This document shows, piece after piece, positions 1,779-49,534 of a stretch of 64,000 nucleotides of DNA. How positions within the stretch are numbered: the stretch's first letter is position 1; the number at the start of each line of letters is the position of its first letter. The position numbers and the translations under genes are program-made. The DNA comes from Candidatus Thorarchaeota archaeon. GTDB taxonomy: Archaea; Asgardarchaeota; Thorarchaeia; Thorarchaeales; Thorarchaeaceae. The notes under the pieces were generated by a model. The model searched no databases. It saw nothing but the letters and a program-made list of their open reading frames with translations, and was not told the DNA's origin. The DNA lies in the NCBI GenBank assembly GCA_046482545.1, contig JAWOEX010000019.1, positions 1 through 64,000 of the forward strand. Reading direction: 5' to 3'.

Positions 1779-3005
1779 TTAATCCTCAGATTCCGGTTTT
1801 TCTAGTGTCTCTAATTCATATTCTCTAGACCCAAGACCCATCTTCTCTGCATGAGAAAGCTGTATATCGGCAAGACGCAATAGTTCACCGGTGTCATCGT
1901 CTTTGCATTCGTGTACATGTGCAAACTTAGGCTCACCACATTCGAGGTCGGCCGCGTCAGACTCTGGGTTCGGTTCTGCGTCGTTTATGGCATCGAGACT
2001 CGCTTGGTCTACAGCTACGGGGTCCTTGGAGCCGAATATTCCAATATCGTGTACCAGAAGCGGCGCACCAACATTCCAACAGTCACATTTGTCGGAAATG
2101 TCAATTGCAAGATTGATATAGTAGAACCTGTCTCGCCCAATTGAATCTACAACACCAAGGGCATTTTCAACAAATCGAGGGGACTGTTCAGGATTTGGTC
2201 GCCATTTGACCTTGACTGCTTTGGCTTCAACCACATTCGAGCATACAGACCGGCAATGGCCACATGAAATGCATTCCGCAGTATCAATCACAGCTGTTTC
2301 TCCATCCATAGTGATACAACGTGGAGGACAGACTTCGATACACTCGCCACACTCAGGGCCCAAGCATTTCTCAGGGTCTATCGATACTTCGCCCATGTGG
2401 TGCATAGCCGCCTTACCCCTTTTGCCAACAAGACCAATTCCGAGGTTTTTCAGCGAACCACCTATGCCGCTGAGCCCATGCCCTTTGGCATGAGTTAGCA
2501 TAATCACGATGTCGGTGTCAAACAATGCGGCTGCAACGTCTACTTCTTTGACAAATTCGCCATCTATTTCTACCGTGTGAACATCTGTTCCCCAATAGCC
2601 GTCGGCCATAATCATAGGAGCTCCTACTGTGGCTGGGCTATAACCGTTCTTGAGAGCCATCCCCAAATACTCTACTGCGGTTGTCCTTCCGCCATAGATT
2701 CCGGCTGTACCATATCCGAGTCCACAGGTCTCAGCCACGAAGGGGATACCACCGCTTTCCCGCACCAACTCCACAACCTTTCGGACGTAGGCTGGACGAA
2801 TGTAGTTAGTATTGCCATATTGGCCGAAGTGTGTCTTCACCATGACTTTGCTTCCGTTTTCGATGGCATCATCAAGCCCTAAGAACCGGTATATCTGCTC
2901 AAGCTTATCGAGCATATTGTAGTCAGAAGTCGCTTTTCGATCAGTAAAGAGAACTTGAGATTTGGACAATCGCATTCCCACCTTGTTCGGTCTGAATTTT
3001 ATCAA
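1779..3005 (-). CDS. DUF362 family Fe-S protein with 2x[4Fe-4S] ferredoxin domain
   Basis: VKTHFG, HAKGH..GGSLKNLG, CxxCxxxCP and CISCGHC motifs, CDC near C-terminus; true start probably slightly downstream. Confidence 0.85.
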   Translation of the reverse strand: MIKFRPNKVGMRLSKSQVLFTDRKATSDYNMLDKLEQIYRFLGLDDAIENGSKVMVKTHFGQYGNTNYIRPAYVRKVVELVRESGGIPFVAETCGLGYGTAGIYGGRTTAVEYLGMALKNGYSPATVGAPMIMADGYWGTDVHTVEIDGEFVKEVDVAAALFDTDIVIMLTHAKGHGLSGIGGSLKNLGIGLVGKRGKAAMHHMGEVSIDPEKCLGPECGECIEVCPPRCITMDGETAVIDTAECISCGHCRSVCSNVVEAKAVKVKWRPNPEQSPRFVENALGVVDSIGRDRFYYINLAIDISDKCDCWNVGAPLLVHDIGIFGSKDPVAVDQASLDAINDAEPNPESDAADLECGEPKFAHVHECKDDDTGELLRLADIQLSHAEKMGLGSREYELETLEKPESED

Positions 3006-6969: not shown

Positions 6970-7992
6970 TCAAGAACTTTGCTCTGCCTTGGCAAATCTC
7001 TGTTGAGCGCTTACTCCAAATTCCAAATCTGGAGCAAAATGGCATTTAACGAGATGTCCGTCACCAACATCACGTAGCTCTGGCTCCTCCTCTTTACAAA
7101 TATCCTTAGCGAATTCACAGCGTGGATGAAAACGACAGCCCTTCGGTGGACTGATAGGAGTCGGCACTTCTCCTTTGAGTATCTGAGCTCGACCTGCATA
7201 TTCGGGGTTAGGTATAGGTACTGCTGACACTAGAGCAAACGAGTATGGATGCAAAGGATTTCTGAAGATGTCTCTGGGAGTCAGTTCCACTATCTGACCC
7301 AGATACATAACGGCGATTCTATCGCTCATATGTTTCACAACTGAAAGATCATGAGAGATGAACATATAGGTCAGATCAAACTCTTTCTGCAAATCTTTCA
7401 TCAGATTCAAGGATTGCGCCTGAACAGATACGTCAGTGCTAGACGTTGGTTCATCCATGACAATGAAATCAGGATTCAGTGCAAGTGCCCTAGCTATACA
7501 AATCCTCTGACGCTGGCCACCACTAAACTCGTGAGGAAATCGATTCAGGTGGTCTTCTGTTAGACCCACCTTTCGGAGCAGCTCGAGCACCATGTCTCGC
7601 ATCTTTGGTCCCCGTGCGATACCATTCACAACAAGAGGTTCACCAACGGAATTCTTTATGGTAACGCGGGGGTCAAGTGAAGCCATAGGATCTTGGAAGA
7701 CAATACCCATCTTGCTTCTAAGCTTACGCAAATCTCTTCCGGAGATGTGAGTTATGTCTTCACCTTGAAATATGATTTTGCCTCCGGTCGGCTCAATGAG
7801 ACGCAACATCGTTCTTCCAAGTGTGGTCTTTCCACAGCCTGATTCACCAACAAGACCCATGGTCTCTCCTTTCTTTATCTCAAAGGAAACACCATCGACC
7901 GCGTGAACTTGGCCTACAACAGAACGGAAAACACCGCCTGTTAGGGGGAAATACTTTTCGAGGTCTTCGACTTCAATGAGTGTTTCAGTCAT
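6970..7992 (-). CDS. oppF: Oligopeptide ABC transporter ATP-binding protein OppF/AppF
   Basis: [31 protein letters not shown]; start taken at MTETL, 2 nt after the upstream stop. Confidence 0.9.
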
Positions 7993-7993
7993 T

Positions 7994-9166
7994 CTATTTC
8001 TCCTCCTGTTGGTCTTCCAAAGGATGATGACAAGCAACCCAGTGGTCAGGTCCAAGTTCCCGAAGCTCTGGTTTCTCTTGTCTACAAATTTCAGTAGCAT
8101 AGTCACATCGAGGGTGAAAACGACATCCCGGCGGTGGCTCAATCAGATTTGGAACTGTTCCTGAAATCTGAGGTAGTCTTTCACGATCTTCGTGGAGCTT
8201 AGGAATCGCCTTCAGGAGCCCGGTTGTATAAGGATGAAGAGGATTCTCAAAAAGCTCTTTTGTGCTGGCGGTTTCAACGGTATTGCCAGCATACATAACG
8301 GTAACCCAGTCACAGGTTTCGGCCACGACACCCAAGTCGTGAGTTATTATGATGATGGAAGATCCAATCTCTTTCTTGAGATCATTGAGCAAATCGAGCA
8401 CTTGAGCCTGAACCGTGACATCAAGCGCTGTAGTAGCTTCATCGGCAATGAGGATGCTCGGATTGCATGATATAGCCATAGCAATAAGTGCTCTCTGACG
8501 CATCCCACCAGAAAGCTCATGGGGGTATTGATTAGCCACTTTTTCAGGGCTCGGTATTCTTACTATCTCTAGTATCCTAATGGCTTCTCTCTTTGCAGCC
8601 TTCTTGGCATCCTTTTCATCCGGTTCTGGAGGGTCATCTAGCTGCGATTCATAATGTTCTATTTTCGCTTTGATTTCAGAGCGCCTCTCATCTGGAATGT
8701 CGCCCTCAAGAGCTTCCTCTAAATTCTCGATCTTCATTTCCAGAACATCGCGTGAAAGGTCCTGATGCAGGTTGACTACTTCGGCTATCTGGTCGCCTAT
8801 TCGAAAGACTGGATTCGGAAAAGTTGCCGGGTCCTGAAATACAATAGCAATCCTTCTACCGCGGATTTTAAGCATTTCATCGCTAGCGAGGTCAAGAATA
8901 GGTATCTCTGTTATTTCTCCCGTTTCCTTATCTTTGTCGTAGAACCGCACTGAACCTTCTTCGATTACGCCAGGCGCTTCCACAATCCGGAGAATGGATC
9001 GTGCAGTAACCGATTTTCCACAGCCAGTTTCGCCCACAAGTCCCATGGTATCTCCCCTTCTCAGGAACATCTCAACACCATCTAGAGCTTTTACGACTCC
9101 TTCGTATGTATAGAAATTGGTCTTCAGATTACGAACTTCAAGTACTAGGTCATGAGGTGTCGTCAT
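7994..9166 (-). CDS. oppD: Oligopeptide ABC transporter ATP-binding protein OppD/DppD
   Basis: GETGCGKS, LSGGMRQR, IADEATTALD; ~50-aa helical insertion. Confidence 0.9.
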   Translation of the reverse strand: MTTPHDLVLEVRNLKTNFYTYEGVVKALDGVEMFLRRGDTMGLVGETGCGKSVTARSILRIVEAPGVIEEGSVRFYDKDKETGEITEIPILDLASDEMLKIRGRRIAIVFQDPATFPNPVFRIGDQIAEVVNLHQDLSRDVLEMKIENLEEALEGDIPDERRSEIKAKIEHYESQLDDPPEPDEKDAKKAAKREAIRILEIVRIPSPEKVANQYPHELSGGMRQRALIAMAISCNPSILIADEATTALDVTVQAQVLDLLNDLKKEIGSSIIIITHDLGVVAETCDWVTVMYAGNTVETASTKELFENPLHPYTTGLLKAIPKLHEDRERLPQISGTVPNLIEPPPGCRFHPRCDYATEICRQEKPELRELGPDHWVACHHPLEDQQEEK

Positions 9167-14802: not shown

Positions 14803-14855
14803 ATTCGGGCATTTTTTCAAATCTGATTTCGTGTGATTTCTTGTCTAGCTCAGGA

Positions 14856-15128
14856 TATAACCTGTCTCTTACAGCTGTAGCAACTGCTTGAAACTTCTGT
14901 GTTCCGCCCTTCTTCTGCCAGCGTTACCGCCCCCAAGATACCCGTAGGCCCTTGAGTCAGCAGGGGCTTCGGCCGCGTGCTTCGTGACAGAACACTAGCC
15001 CCCTTCTCTAGTCCTGCTGGGACGAAGTTCCGTACTGAGCCTAACAAACTCCCCTCGTCTGTGGTCAGGAAAGGAGTTGCAGGAAATCTTACACTGCTCT
15101 ACCCTGGTTGTTTAGGATTCTGTAAGCT
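14856..15128 (-). mobile_element. Structured non-coding repeat element, copy A (short form, ~273 bp)
   Basis: Reverse complement aligns to both ends of copies B and C but lacks their 266-nt internal module; flanked by degenerate direct repeats at 14839-14855 and 15128-15143. Confidence 0.85.
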
Positions 15129-15293
15129 CTTGGTTATTCAGGAAACCTACATTTAATATTGTTAAGGTGATAGCTCTGTGTTAGAATACCCAAATGTGAA
15201 GTAGGTATCTTGGTCGTAGAAACCTAACTTCACAGCAAGGGACAGAATAGAAGTTAACAAAAGTATTAGATTGTTCGAAGATGGAGGTTTACT

Positions 15294-29212: not shown

Positions 29213-30340
29213 ATGTCAACAGGTCAGACCCTTCAAACCCAGATTCATGTTGACCCGGTCCAAGGTAAGAAAGATATCAGGCTTTTTACCCCGCCGGGCA
29301 TCCTTATCGAATCTCGTAGATATCCTACTGTTATAGCCAGCGTATTGGCATCATCATCCCCCTCCGAGCATATAGCTCTCTTTAATCATCCGGAGTCCTG
29401 GGAAGGACTCGACAAAACTACTATTCTCTCGATGAGGAGACGCTTGTATCGCTTGCAGATTCCCCTCAATGCCAGACGTATGGAACCATATGAAGCCGTG
29501 CACAAACTCCACCAGATAGCCCTGAGTGTCTCGCCTGTCGCAGTAGAGATAAGAAGTCAGGGCCTTCCTCATTCTAACTTAGTTACAAACCCGGGACAAC
29601 TACCATGTGGGACAGAAGTTCCTGCTGAATCACTTGAAATCATATCAAATACAGAAACCAGCAGAGTCGCAAAAACAATAACCGAGAAAGATATTCCCGC
29701 TGCACAGGGAGTTTGGCAACTACTTGAATACGACTATTCACTTGATCAAGCGGCACGTCTCATGGCGGTAGGTCTTCTCGGGAAGATTGGAAACCGAAGA
29801 ATCATCACAACCCGTGGGGCATACAAAGCGGCAATTGATGCTTTCATTGGCCGAACAATAATTGAGCTAGCTGAAAGACCGTTGGCAAATAGAAGAACAG
29901 TATTCTCTGCCAACTTGTTCAACGACGATTTCACTGTGTTCCTACAGCCAGGTGAGCCAGCAGTTGACTACGTGAGAATGGATATCAGGCCATCGGGCAC
30001 AAGTCAAGGATATTCATTTGAGCGAGAAAATGGTTCCGCTTCTGATGCCAAGTCCTCACTTTACGCTGACCATGCCCGATACTCAGCTTACAGGCATCTC
30101 TTAGCAAATCAGCTGAAAGCACATATTACGATTTTTCACTGCTCCAAAACACCTAGGAATAATCTTCTGGGTCCATGGATTGCTAGAGCTGGTGTGGAGA
30201 AAGCGCTTTCATCAGGACCCAGACGTGTAGGTACGGGTCAATCGGATTCAGATCTTCTCAACGGAATCCTTTCACCAAACTTGAAAAAATGGACTCACTC
30301 GCTTCCGTTCAAGAATAGGCAAGTTTTACAAAAATCCTAA
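29213..30340 (+). CDS. Divergent Nre-family (DUF650/651) DNA repair protein
   Basis: TPP.....YP, HPESW, QIALS..PV.VE, GLLG....R.IITTR follow Nre motif order; the stop codon is supplied by repeat copy B. Confidence 0.75.
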   Translation: MSTGQTLQTQIHVDPVQGKKDIRLFTPPGILIESRRYPTVIASVLASSSPSEHIALFNHPESWEGLDKTTILSMRRRLYRLQIPLNARRMEPYEAVHKLHQIALSVSPVAVEIRSQGLPHSNLVTNPGQLPCGTEVPAESLEIISNTETSRVAKTITEKDIPAAQGVWQLLEYDYSLDQAARLMAVGLLGKIGNRRIITTRGAYKAAIDAFIGRTIIELAERPLANRRTVFSANLFNDDFTVFLQPGEPAVDYVRMDIRPSGTSQGYSFERENGSASDAKSSLYADHARYSAYRHLLANQLKAHITIFHCSKTPRNNLLGPWIARAGVEKALSSGPRRVGTGQSDSDLLNGILSPNLKKWTHSLPFKNRQVLQKS

Positions 30341-30875
30341 AGAATCCGAGTGGAAGAGTGTAAACTATCTGTAAGAGTTCCTGTAAGTGCTACTGTGACC
30401 GAGGGCGATAGGACTTTATTAGGCCCAGTAAGAAATTTCGTTTCAGTAGGACTAGGCAAGTGGGCTAGTGGTGTAACACGACGCACGCGGCCGAAAGCTG
30501 CAAGGAAGACTCGTTCTTCTAAACAGAAGTCCCCACTCTCCAAACAAGGGGCCTCATCGAGCTCTGGAGAGTCCGCGGCTGTTCACCTTGTCCGTAATGG
30601 ACCTCCTCAGTTACGGCGACAAGGCTGAGGTGGGTGATCATGACCACGCCGTGGTAAGAACTGTGGAAGACCTCGCTGTCGCCGGGAGTGTGACCCGGAC
30701 AACGACAGGAGACAGAAGCCAGGACCGCAGGAGGAATTCCATTCCGATGAACGCGGACAAAGCCCCTGCTGACTCACGGAGCCACTGGGTAACCTTGGGG
30801 GCGGCGACGCTGGCAGGGGAAGGGTGGAACACAGAAGTTTCATGCAGTTCCTAGAACTGTAAGAAATGGGTTATA
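30324..30875 (+). mobile_element. Structured non-coding repeat element, copy B (long form, ~552 bp)
   Basis: Colinear with copy C over nearly its whole length; flanked by TCAAGAATAGGCAAG (30309-30323) and TCAAGAAAAGGAGG (30876-30889). Confidence 0.88.
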
Positions 30876-30908
30876 TCAAGAAAAGGAGGTAGTTGCCGAT
30901 TCCATGAG

Positions 30909-34866: not shown

Positions 34867-34962
34867 ATGCGTTTCGATGAAGATTGGGACGAAGACGAAG
34901 ACTGGGACGAAGACGACGATTGGGACGAAGACGAAGACTGGGACGAAGACGACGATTGGTAA
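34867..34962 (+). CDS. Candidate 31-aa hyperacidic (DWDEDE)n microprotein
   Basis: MRFDEDWDEDEDWDEDDDWDEDEDWDEDDDW*; SD AGGTGA at 34851-34856. Confidence 0.6.
   Translation: MRFDEDWDEDEDWDEDDDWDEDEDWDEDDDW
34882..34959 (+). repeat. 18-bp tandem repeat (perfect 36-bp higher-order duplication)
   Basis: GA(T/C)TGGGACGAAGACGA(A/C) x4 plus partial unit. Confidence 0.95.
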
Positions 34963-35058
34963 ACATCTCCCAGTAATGAATCTAAGTCTCGCGTCCAAGT
35001 GAGATATTGAAAAATGATTGTGAGCCTTGATTTTTTGGCTCACAATCCTCTGTTGTCT

Positions 35059-47729: not shown

Positions 47730-49534
47730 TCACGGCAATTCGGTCTTTTCTTCATAGATTTCAGGCAGGAAATAGGTTCCAATAATGGCAACTGCTATCA
47801 TTATGGCTATCACAACTGTAAGTCCCGGGAGATTATAGGGGGAAAGGCAAAACCCCCAACTGCTGGTCCAATTAGCATACCAGAGCCGAAGAAAATGCTA
47901 TGCACTCCCATGGTAGCACCCCGTGTTTCTTCCTCAGACACATCGGTAAGATAAGCCATGGATGCTGGTGGTATATACCAGCGAGATATCCAAGAGCTGG
48001 TAGAAGCGGCCATTTCGACCAAAGTGCGCTGATATTATCAGAATTTGCTAGCAGCAGATATGCAAGCACACCAAAACCCAAGAGACCGCTAATAATGAAT
48101 GGCCGACGTTTTTTCAAGCAATCGGATAGATACCCATGGCGATGATGCCCAGAAGCAAGGCTCTTCTAAGCATTCCGAACAGAATTATGAACTCGATGGC
48201 TGTGATGTAGAATTCGCTTTCGATAATACGCTGAGCATATCCAATGAGAAGACCGTACATTGAAATGATTGGCACGTAGAATAGTATCATCTTCTGAATT
48301 CTGCGGTCACTAGCTACTTCTTTTACAAGATCTGAAACACTCATTTGGACTTGAATATCCGTTCGGGTTTCCGAAAACCCGATATTTGCTATGAGTCCGC
48401 TAATAAGACAGGCTTAACCTGTAATTCCCAGAATGAGAACCGGCATGAAACCAAACTCCAGCAGAATGGCTCCCATTCCATAACCACTGATGAGCCCCAT
48501 CAGTGTTGAAAGATTGTAATAGCTCATGAGATTTGCCCCATTGTCCTTCGCTGACATGTCTCGTATCATAGATAGGGCTGTTGACCCCTCCCAAGCGGCT
48601 CCTAAACCAAAGATGACTGATGCAATCAAAAGAATTGGGACGTTCGGAGTAAAAGCAAAGCTAAGTGCAGCAAATCCCGTTATGAAGAGGCTTGTAATCA
48701 GAATGGGGTTTCTTCCGATTTTGTCACTATATGATCCGAAGAATGAGACTGACGTCAATTCTGCTACGGGATAGACTAGCATTACTGCTGCTATCTCCAG
48801 CACATGTGTTCCTCCACCCATGTATGAAGAACTCTGGAGTGCTCGGAATTTTACAAAATCCTAAATAAATCGGCACATAGAAGTGTAAGATTTCTGTAAG
48901 ATGTGACGTGAACCGATGGACCCGTCCAAAACGGTGTGTTTACCTTCTCTCTTCTCGAGCACTAGGGGGCTCTATTCCCTGCAGTACGAAACAACTCTAC
49001 AGTAGGACTAGGCAAGTGGGCTAGTGCTCTGTCACGAAGCACGCGGCCGAAACCCTAAGAGAAGACTCTGCTTCTCGACGGAAGTCCTCACTCTCCATAC
49101 AGGACCTTCATTCAAGGTCCGGAGAGTCCGCGGCTGTTCACCATGTCCAGACGGACCTCCTCAGCGGCGGCGACAAAGCTGAGTCGGGTGATCATGACCA
49201 CGCCGTGGCAAGCACTGTGGAAGACCTCGCTGTTGCCGGGAGTGATGACCCGGGATGACGACAGGAGAAGGAAGCCAGGACCGCGGGAGGAATCCCATTC
49301 CGGTGAACCCGGACGAAGCCCGTGCTGACTCAAGGGTCTACGGGTATCTTGGGGGCGGCGGCGCTGGCAGGGGAAGGGTGGAACACAGAAATTTCATGCA
49401 GTGTACGCAACTGTAAGAAACAGGTAATGTGAATTACTGCGATACTGATGTAGAAGGATGCCCGTACTATGATAGTGAATGTGTAAAGTGCAATGAGATT
49501 CAGGGTATGTTCTGAGGATTTAAGGCCTCTTCAT
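47730..49534 (-). pseudogene. MFS transporter pseudogene interrupted by repeat copy C, with several frameshifts
   Basis: TM1 (LNLIALYTFTIIVRASFYISIAVI) lies at 49430-49520; the rest (QSSSYM..GSYSDKIGR; DVSEEETRGATMG) lies at 47730-48840 in several frames. Confidence 0.85.
48849..49429 (+). mobile_element. Structured non-coding repeat element, copy C (long form, ~581 bp)
   Basis: Colinear with B; inserted inside the MFS gene; degenerate flanking repeats at 48835-48848 and 49430-49443. Confidence 0.9.

Follow-up and report, generated by a model that had tools for sequence, protein, structure and literature searches.

A six-base-pair TCnnGA repeat flanks short copies of a repeated element in an Asgard archaeal genome

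Short copies in the window and their parent elements

The window analysed here, a stretch of 64,000 nucleotides, is contig C10 of a 3.05-Mb genome assembled in 45 contigs (G000); relatives used for comparison are labelled G001, G002 and G005. Three copies of one element, A, B and C, are located in the window (Table 1). Insertion of copy B truncated a Nre DNA-repair gene, and copy C interrupts a gene for an MFS transporter on the minus strand. Elsewhere in the window, an 18-nt tandem repeat located between annotated ORFs (34876–34965) would specify an acidic peptide of DEDWDE type, and two neighbouring minus-strand ORFs of 390 aa (6970–9166), whose repeated DNA has diverged, are probably tandem paralogues. 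The layout across aligned copies is a TCnnGA hexamer, a variable tip of 7 nt, a conserved left end, the body, a right end that closes with GGTTA and again a hexamer. The motif containing TTACA/TGTAA in the left end of copy B is also found at the right end. Stable DNA hairpins were not detected in left ends (z 0.1, −1.2, 1.5 and 0.5), that of copy B included, and a hairpin near the right end was evident in copy B only (z −2.6).

A census of the family in G000 yielded approximately 89 right ends, 57 left ends and 32 full copies of ~550 bp, and the family was matched in 18 of the 24 same-family genomes searched. Pattern scans of public collections returned nothing, or only seven isolated matches in unrelated bacteria that are probably due to chance. 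Once aligned, the 32 full copies look like patchworks of alternative blocks, which suggests that copies often recombine with or convert one another; mixing during assembly may also contribute to this pattern. An extra TA between right end and hexamer occurs at eight right ends from several lineages, including copies A and B, and is possibly a footprint of the joining step.

Table 1. Position of the element copies and their parts in the window
Feature	Position	Strand	Remarks
Copy A	14850–15143	−	280-bp internal-deletion derivative
Hexamer TCCTGA of copy A	15138–15143 and 14850–14855	−	extra TA at right junction (14856–14857)
Nre DNA-repair gene	29213–30340		truncated
Copy B	30309–30881	+	mini-element copy
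Left hexamer TCAAGA of copy B (6-bp core)	30309–30314	+	within 3′ end of Nre gene
Left-end tip of copy B	30315–30321	+	element-borne; common to 8 unrelated loci
Left end proper of copy B	30322–30390	+	one forward and two reverse copies of the TTACA/TGTAA-containing motif
tnpB 3′ tail, covarying structured RNA and right end (ends GGTTA) of copy B	30449–30873	+	RNA a putative TnpB omegaRNA scaffold
Internal TCnnGA site of copy B	30563–30568	+	same site elsewhere: inversion breakpoint (G000 C41) and 5′ start of two truncated copies
Extra TA and right hexamer TCAAGA of copy B	30874–30881	+	TA at 30874–30875; flank of another insertion site (partner left end on contig C6)
Copy C	48833–49433	+	older full mini-element
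Hexamers of copy C	left TCTGGA 48833–48838, right TGTGAA 49428–49433	+	right one decayed

The short copies contain no conserved open frame; their partial frame is the tail of tnpB. Besides this tail they keep the left end and a covarying region of ~430 nt, for which the alignment gave 79 pairs with 95% of cells paired (39–45% in slid controls) and 274 double changes compared with 89 in shuffled alignments. The signal is obtained from the alignment only, single-sequence folding of copy B giving none (z −0.7), and a search of Rfam returned no match. Judged from its sequence, the region is a candidate for the scaffold of a TnpB omegaRNA. Just upstream of tnpB, a conserved two-hairpin cassette was seen at L013 (~2815–2900, minus strand) and at up to eleven other tnpB loci. 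It usually lies between two TATA-like boxes, shows partial complementarity to the 3′ motif of the RNA and is possibly a second small RNA.

For copies that match from model position 144, the sequence upstream runs on into tnpB. Full parents with the same left and right ends and identical hexamers were found on contigs C28 (8.3 kb) and C20 (8.2 kb) of G000 and at L049 of G001 (7.6 kb). They carry a gene for a protein of 1400–1960 aa divergent from tnpB, an arrangement that occurs at four loci in G000 and at five in relatives. The content of the 8-kb elements is limited to this giant frame, one small frame and tnpB, without a Pfam match. In G000 the giant frames represent four aCas1 paralogues, 25–32% identical; homologues carry the name Thorarchaeota or Lokiarchaeota, the second of which is the label of the same-genus genome G001. 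One of the parents (G000 C20:228522–236741) carries another aCas1 paralogue and, at the left end, 500 bp left over from the C28-type gene; thus, parents swap cargo.

The first 250 residues of the giant protein are predicted to fold as a Cas1 catalytic domain (pLDDT 94.8), in which E, H, D and D are conserved. The top 12 matches of a structure search with the N-terminus were all Cas1 (best Z 13.5, rmsd 3.4, 177 residues aligned), and comparison with the casposase 6opm gave Z 10.6 and rmsd 3.6 over 186 residues. Foldseek found Cas1 only at E 0.01, and the protein was missed by Pfam Cas1, by sequence and profile searches of the PDB, by the protein atlas and by atlas fold searches. A putative PD-(D/E)XK-like motif follows the Cas1 domain. 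Modelling further suggests a RecA-superfamily fold at approximately residues 650–960 (Z 11.5, rmsd 3.9–4.2, ~200 residues aligned), whose Walker A is degenerate. A fold search with residues 380–1450, which barely covered the C-terminal parts, was filled by matches to this RecA-type domain and no other fold surfaced. The accompanying TnpB has the D of RuvC-I, a G for E exchange in RuvC-II with an E downstream, and the D of RuvC-III; a TnpB of rearranged RuvC type is described in a passage of Altae-Tran et al. 2023 (PMC10691335). Close to the right end, parents and many copies contain the motif GTTCACTCA, in place of which copies A–C have a shorter loop. Copies A–C are very probably gene-less, non-autonomous internal-deletion derivatives of these ~8-kb aCas1-TnpB elements, and it is reasonably likely that the giant aCas1 protein mobilises the mini-copies in trans.

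As for other enzymes, G000 (98.9% complete) gave no match to serine recombinases (PF00239) or tyrosine recombinases (PF00589), the latter being present in all 14 control genomes. Neither an IS110-type DEDD recombinase (PF01548) nor a reverse transcriptase (PF00078) was matched in three genomes (for the latter, G000 and two relatives). The only match to a Y1 transposase in G000 lies beside no element end and has a frame that continues into unrelated sequence, and five DDE_Tnp_1 matches are located away from the elements.

The flanking repeat is a 6-bp hexamer

The first-pass annotation had described a degenerate direct repeat of 14–16 bp on either side of each copy and taken it for a long target-site duplication. 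A direct repeat within each locus is real, and the strings quoted for it are present; its length, however, is 6 bp. We compared left and right flanks of 50 complete copies (36 in G000 and 14 in two same-genus genomes), with the anchoring blind to the right flank. The hexamers were identical at 23 loci compared with 4.6 in shuffled pairs, and their two variable central bases matched in 73 of 100 cases compared with 34 (p = 0.0002). Over positions 7–16 there were 155 matches out of 500 (142 shuffled, p = 0.09), and at positions 11–16 the count (83 of 300, 82 shuffled, p = 0.47) was at chance level. Loci with at most one mismatch in the hexamer showed no excess of matches over the next 4, 7 or 10 nt (p = 0.18–0.33). 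Perfect runs of at least 12 bp occurred at no locus, not even in the youngest copies, for which the long-duplication claim had predicted perfect repeats. A wider count over 52 loci, which permits re-registering of the left flank by 1 nt and a TA shift of the right flank, gave identical hexamers at 30 loci and at most one mismatch at 39.

Past position 6, identity within loci exceeds that of shuffled pairs in one respect only. Runs of 10–11 bp between tip and target were present at 4 of 31 exact loci compared with 0.74 after shuffling (p = 0.0015, post hoc and with copy B re-paired), or at 3 of 30 with copy B as assembled (p = 0.02); this statistic was picked after inspection of the data, and the summed matches at positions 7–16 of these loci show no excess (p = 0.19).

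Flanking repeats had also been said to differ between loci. The 15-nt left string of copy B, however, recurs on contigs C16 and C24 and, with one change, on C18 of G000, and its first 13 nt are also present in two relatives. Because the string recurs at unrelated loci, its bases 7–15 belong to the tip of the element. The left end is hypervariable over its first 7 nt. The suspected target preference was confirmed and takes the form of the TCnnGA consensus. There is an additional bias upstream, since T at position −3 was found in none of 68 left flanks compared with 29% of genomic TCnnGA sites.

Empty sites gave the same length. At each of five orthologous empty sites the net duplication is 6 bp and in register, contrary to the long repeat for which this comparison had been proposed. 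The empty site of copy C contains a single hexamer, from which the right flank continues in register; the repeat first aligned for this copy was 2 nt out of register with this site. Excision of copy C plus one hexamer restores the MFS transporter frame, in register with two relatives. Likewise, two insertions in G002, taken without the element and one hexamer, align free of gaps to empty sites in G000, and an open frame reappears once 6 bp are excised together with the 8.2-kb C20 element. Counting restored frames gave a weak signal (6 vs 1 vs 2 loci), and for copy A the relative was too divergent for comparison. Taken together, the flanking repeat is the 6-bp TCnnGA hexamer, and we regard a target-site duplication of 14–16 bp as refuted with near certainty.

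The left and right strings originally paired for copy B derive from two insertion sites. Its left flank, the Nre gene, continues beside another copy on contig C30. When the Nre flank and the C30 flank were joined at the hexamer, relatives matched up to the stop codon with 26–28 of 39 nt, compared with only 7–8 of 39 nt for copy B's own right flank against the same Nre ends. The right flank pairs with a left end on contig C6, and this site is empty with one hexamer in G001. The C6 end has a stretch of 30 nt in common with copy B, beyond which the DNA looks foreign, and the end of contig C30 lies within the element; copy B is therefore probably an assembly chimera of two sister copies, a real recombination being less likely. 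In either case, these repeats are the site of at least one mis-join or rearrangement in the 45-contig assembly. The foreign-looking DNA (C6:1–352) is GC-rich and directly abuts the left end, a junction that likely represents an assembly chimera or contamination. Copy B thus serves as a warning that, where a metagenome assembly contains repeats, a comparison of flanks can bring together sequences from two separate sites.

Behaviour of the hexamer and possible mechanisms

The bases of the hexamer tend to follow the lineage of the element. Closest disjoint pairs of left ends share its variable bases in 14 of 21 cases compared with 3.9 after shuffling (p = 0.0003), an effect that is equally strong if the tip is disregarded in choosing the pairs, and the right ends of pairs share the core in 7–8 of 23 cases compared with 3.3 (p = 0.006–0.03). 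This is unlike a plain duplication, in which the free bases depend on the target alone. The left hexamer also fits the consensus better than the right one at 14 loci and worse at 5. Inheritance of the core is not absolute, because four left ends in G005 with near-identical tips carry four different central dinucleotides. Shared cores could alternatively result from lineage-specific preferences of the aCas1 paralogues or from bursts of insertion near the parent.

At G000 C41:25040–25602, a copy has its 5′ half in inverted orientation, with breakpoints precisely at the left hexamer and the internal TCnnGA site and no bases gained or lost; reversing the inversion gives a whole copy of 558 nt. Both junctions read the element's own core, and the internal site of the nearest sister differs from it at both central bases. 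This is a single event, for which prior mutation of the site to a perfect 6-bp inverted repeat could be an alternative. Two 5′-truncated copies begin at the same internal site. Neither a circle nor a clean excision junction was seen.

Three further arrangements involve the ends. From C18:5191 of G000 onward, ~20 nt of a right flank are similar to the left end of the element itself; this flank is either a homology-favoured target or the remnant of an older copy. At L087:1470–1520 (G001 C118), a right end is joined via the hexamer to the start of a left end lacking its tip. Finally, two head-to-head copies of opposite orientation have one hexamer in common at G000 C20:181321–182440.

On balance, we lean towards a mechanism in which the Cas1-fold enzyme exchanges strands across a 6-bp core that is carried by the donor and favoured by homology, as opposed to plain duplication by fill-in. 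The aCas1 protein would make cuts staggered by 6 nt across the hexamer in both donor and target, and the donor end would bring its own hexamer strand, so that targets with a matching hexamer are favoured. Mismatches would be tolerated as heteroduplex and later resolved by replication or repair. The C41 junctions might both read the element's own core because staggered exchange with a heteroduplex resolved by replication predicts such an outcome. The hexamer would then act as a crossover core on Cas1 chemistry, comparable in function with Tn916 coupling sequences or with the overlap used by site-specific recombinases. A RecA-type domain of the same protein may, speculatively, assist pairing, and TnpB with its RNA would probably serve retention at emptied sites, as the literature proposes for other TnpB transposons. 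A broader version, with aCas1 performing conservative homology-sensing strand exchange in integration, excision and inversion, aided by its fused RecA-type domain and with short programmable targeting set by the element end, we put forward as tentative. The data agree better with a side remark of the first-pass annotation, that mismatched flanks might reflect recombination at sites of partial homology, than with its long duplication.

The main alternative is a classical 6-bp target-site duplication, in which aCas1 or a DDE transposase acting in trans joins both ends over the palindromic TCnnGA and the gaps are filled. We consider it possible, though on present evidence doubtful. The agreement of left and right hexamers in the wider count (30 of 52 loci, 39 within one mismatch), the uniform net gain of 6 bp at empty sites and a palindromic target lacking T at −3 are what it leads one to expect. 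Cas1 enzymes are known to create duplications (PMC5137440), DDE transposases are present in G000, and the four cores on near-identical G005 tips suit this reading as well. Lineage bias would have to come from paralogue-specific preference or from few expanded lineages. It gives no reason to expect the observed level of core sharing between disjoint sister pairs, the asymmetry of left and right in their fit to the consensus or a conservative inversion bounded by hexamers, and the hypervariable first 7 nt of the left end are unlike DDE terminal repeats.

Peel-and-paste transposition of the IS200/IS605 type by a Y1 enzyme in trans, with one hexamer as target and TnpB TAM and the other as terminal sequence of the element, would involve no duplication at all. 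Empty sites would present the same picture, heritable target choice is typical of IS200/IS605, and TnpB with its RNA at the right end, the right-end hairpin of copy B and the one Y1 gene of G000 would suit it. That gene, however, adjoins no element end and enters unrelated sequence, left ends have no stable hairpin, no rule of base pairing between tip and core is visible, and both hexamers co-vary within loci even against the norm of the lineage (outer pair on C22), so that we hold this reading to be improbable. Equally heritable cores would arise if TnpB or aCas1 used the element RNA, read through into the right hexamer of the donor, as a short seed. Heritability of the right hexamer, retention of the whole structured RNA by mini-copies and the RuvC residues of TnpB are consistent with this. 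Sister right flanks are, however, unrelated by eye past the hexamer, heritability is greater on the left, and extended matches track the left tip and not the right flank of the donor, which leaves RNA-guided targeting little probability.

There remains the long duplication itself, by a casposase-type or target-primed retro mechanism. The Cas1 fold of the parent protein, the four loci with runs of 10–11 bp and the ~20-nt likeness on C18 speak for it. Against it stand chance-level matching at positions 11–16, the lack of any run of at least 12 bp, the youngest copies included, a tip common to several loci, the five empty sites, copy B flanks from two sites and the lack of a reverse transcriptase match, and we rate it as exceedingly improbable. 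Target-primed retroposition, which the first pass had considered, is therefore abandoned with the fixed 6-bp repeat. The proposed casposase link survives in part, as the parent encodes a Cas1-fold protein and the repeat is not the 15 bp of casposases (PMC5137440).

Comparison with known systems

Failure of the long duplication removes the link to retroposition and to the 15-bp casposase signature. Elements of the aCas1-TnpB type are known from computation only, and the copies described here supply exact ends, a target consensus and a substrate of 280–560 bp. Should the donor indeed carry the 6-bp repeat as a core, an enzyme of the Cas1 family would behave as a site-specific recombinase; to our knowledge, no characterised Cas1 works like one.

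Asgard aCas1-TnpB loci (Cas1H-Asgard-1/-2) were predicted by Altae-Tran and co-workers (PMC10691335), whose passages on these loci attribute aCas1 to Makarova et al. 2020 and propose it as transposase, mobility and mechanism being computational predictions there. As described in these passages, the loci have in common with ours a Cas1 variant beside tnpB, an Asgard host, flanking repeats and GTTCACTCA downstream of tnpB. Target consensus, duplication length, gene-less copies, core inheritance, inversion and a RecA-type domain do not appear in the same passages.

Target-primed retroelements combine a reverse transcriptase with variable long duplications, whereas here the repeat has a fixed 6 bp and PF00078 is not matched. 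TnpB transposons of the IS200/IS605 and IS607 groups resemble our elements in a tnpB gene with structured RNA over its 3′ end to the right end and in gene-less derivatives. In contrast to these, the elements here have no Y1 or serine recombinase and no left-end hairpin, and their RNA measures ~430 nt and their repeat 6 bp. Coupling-sequence recombination of Tn916/CTnDOT (PMC5812530) is a functional likeness only, with a short junction sequence carried by the donor and heteroduplex tolerated. It depends on tyrosine recombinases, of which PF00589 found none here, and our cores usually match and follow a palindromic consensus.

Casposons (PMC5137440, PMC9939771) likewise have a stand-alone Cas1-fold protein in a large element and a sequence-specific target. 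They differ in a repeat of 15 bp (PMC5137440) as against 6 bp, in PolB, which is missing from the gene content found here, and in terminal inverted repeats, in place of which we find only a short subterminal inverted motif and a hypervariable left tip. Casposons use a tRNA or aEF-2 site, whereas the targets here are dozens of scattered sites. With the casposase, the giant protein shares only the helical catalytic domain of Cas1, which appears to be fused to nuclease-like and RecA-like domains in an element that also carries TnpB.
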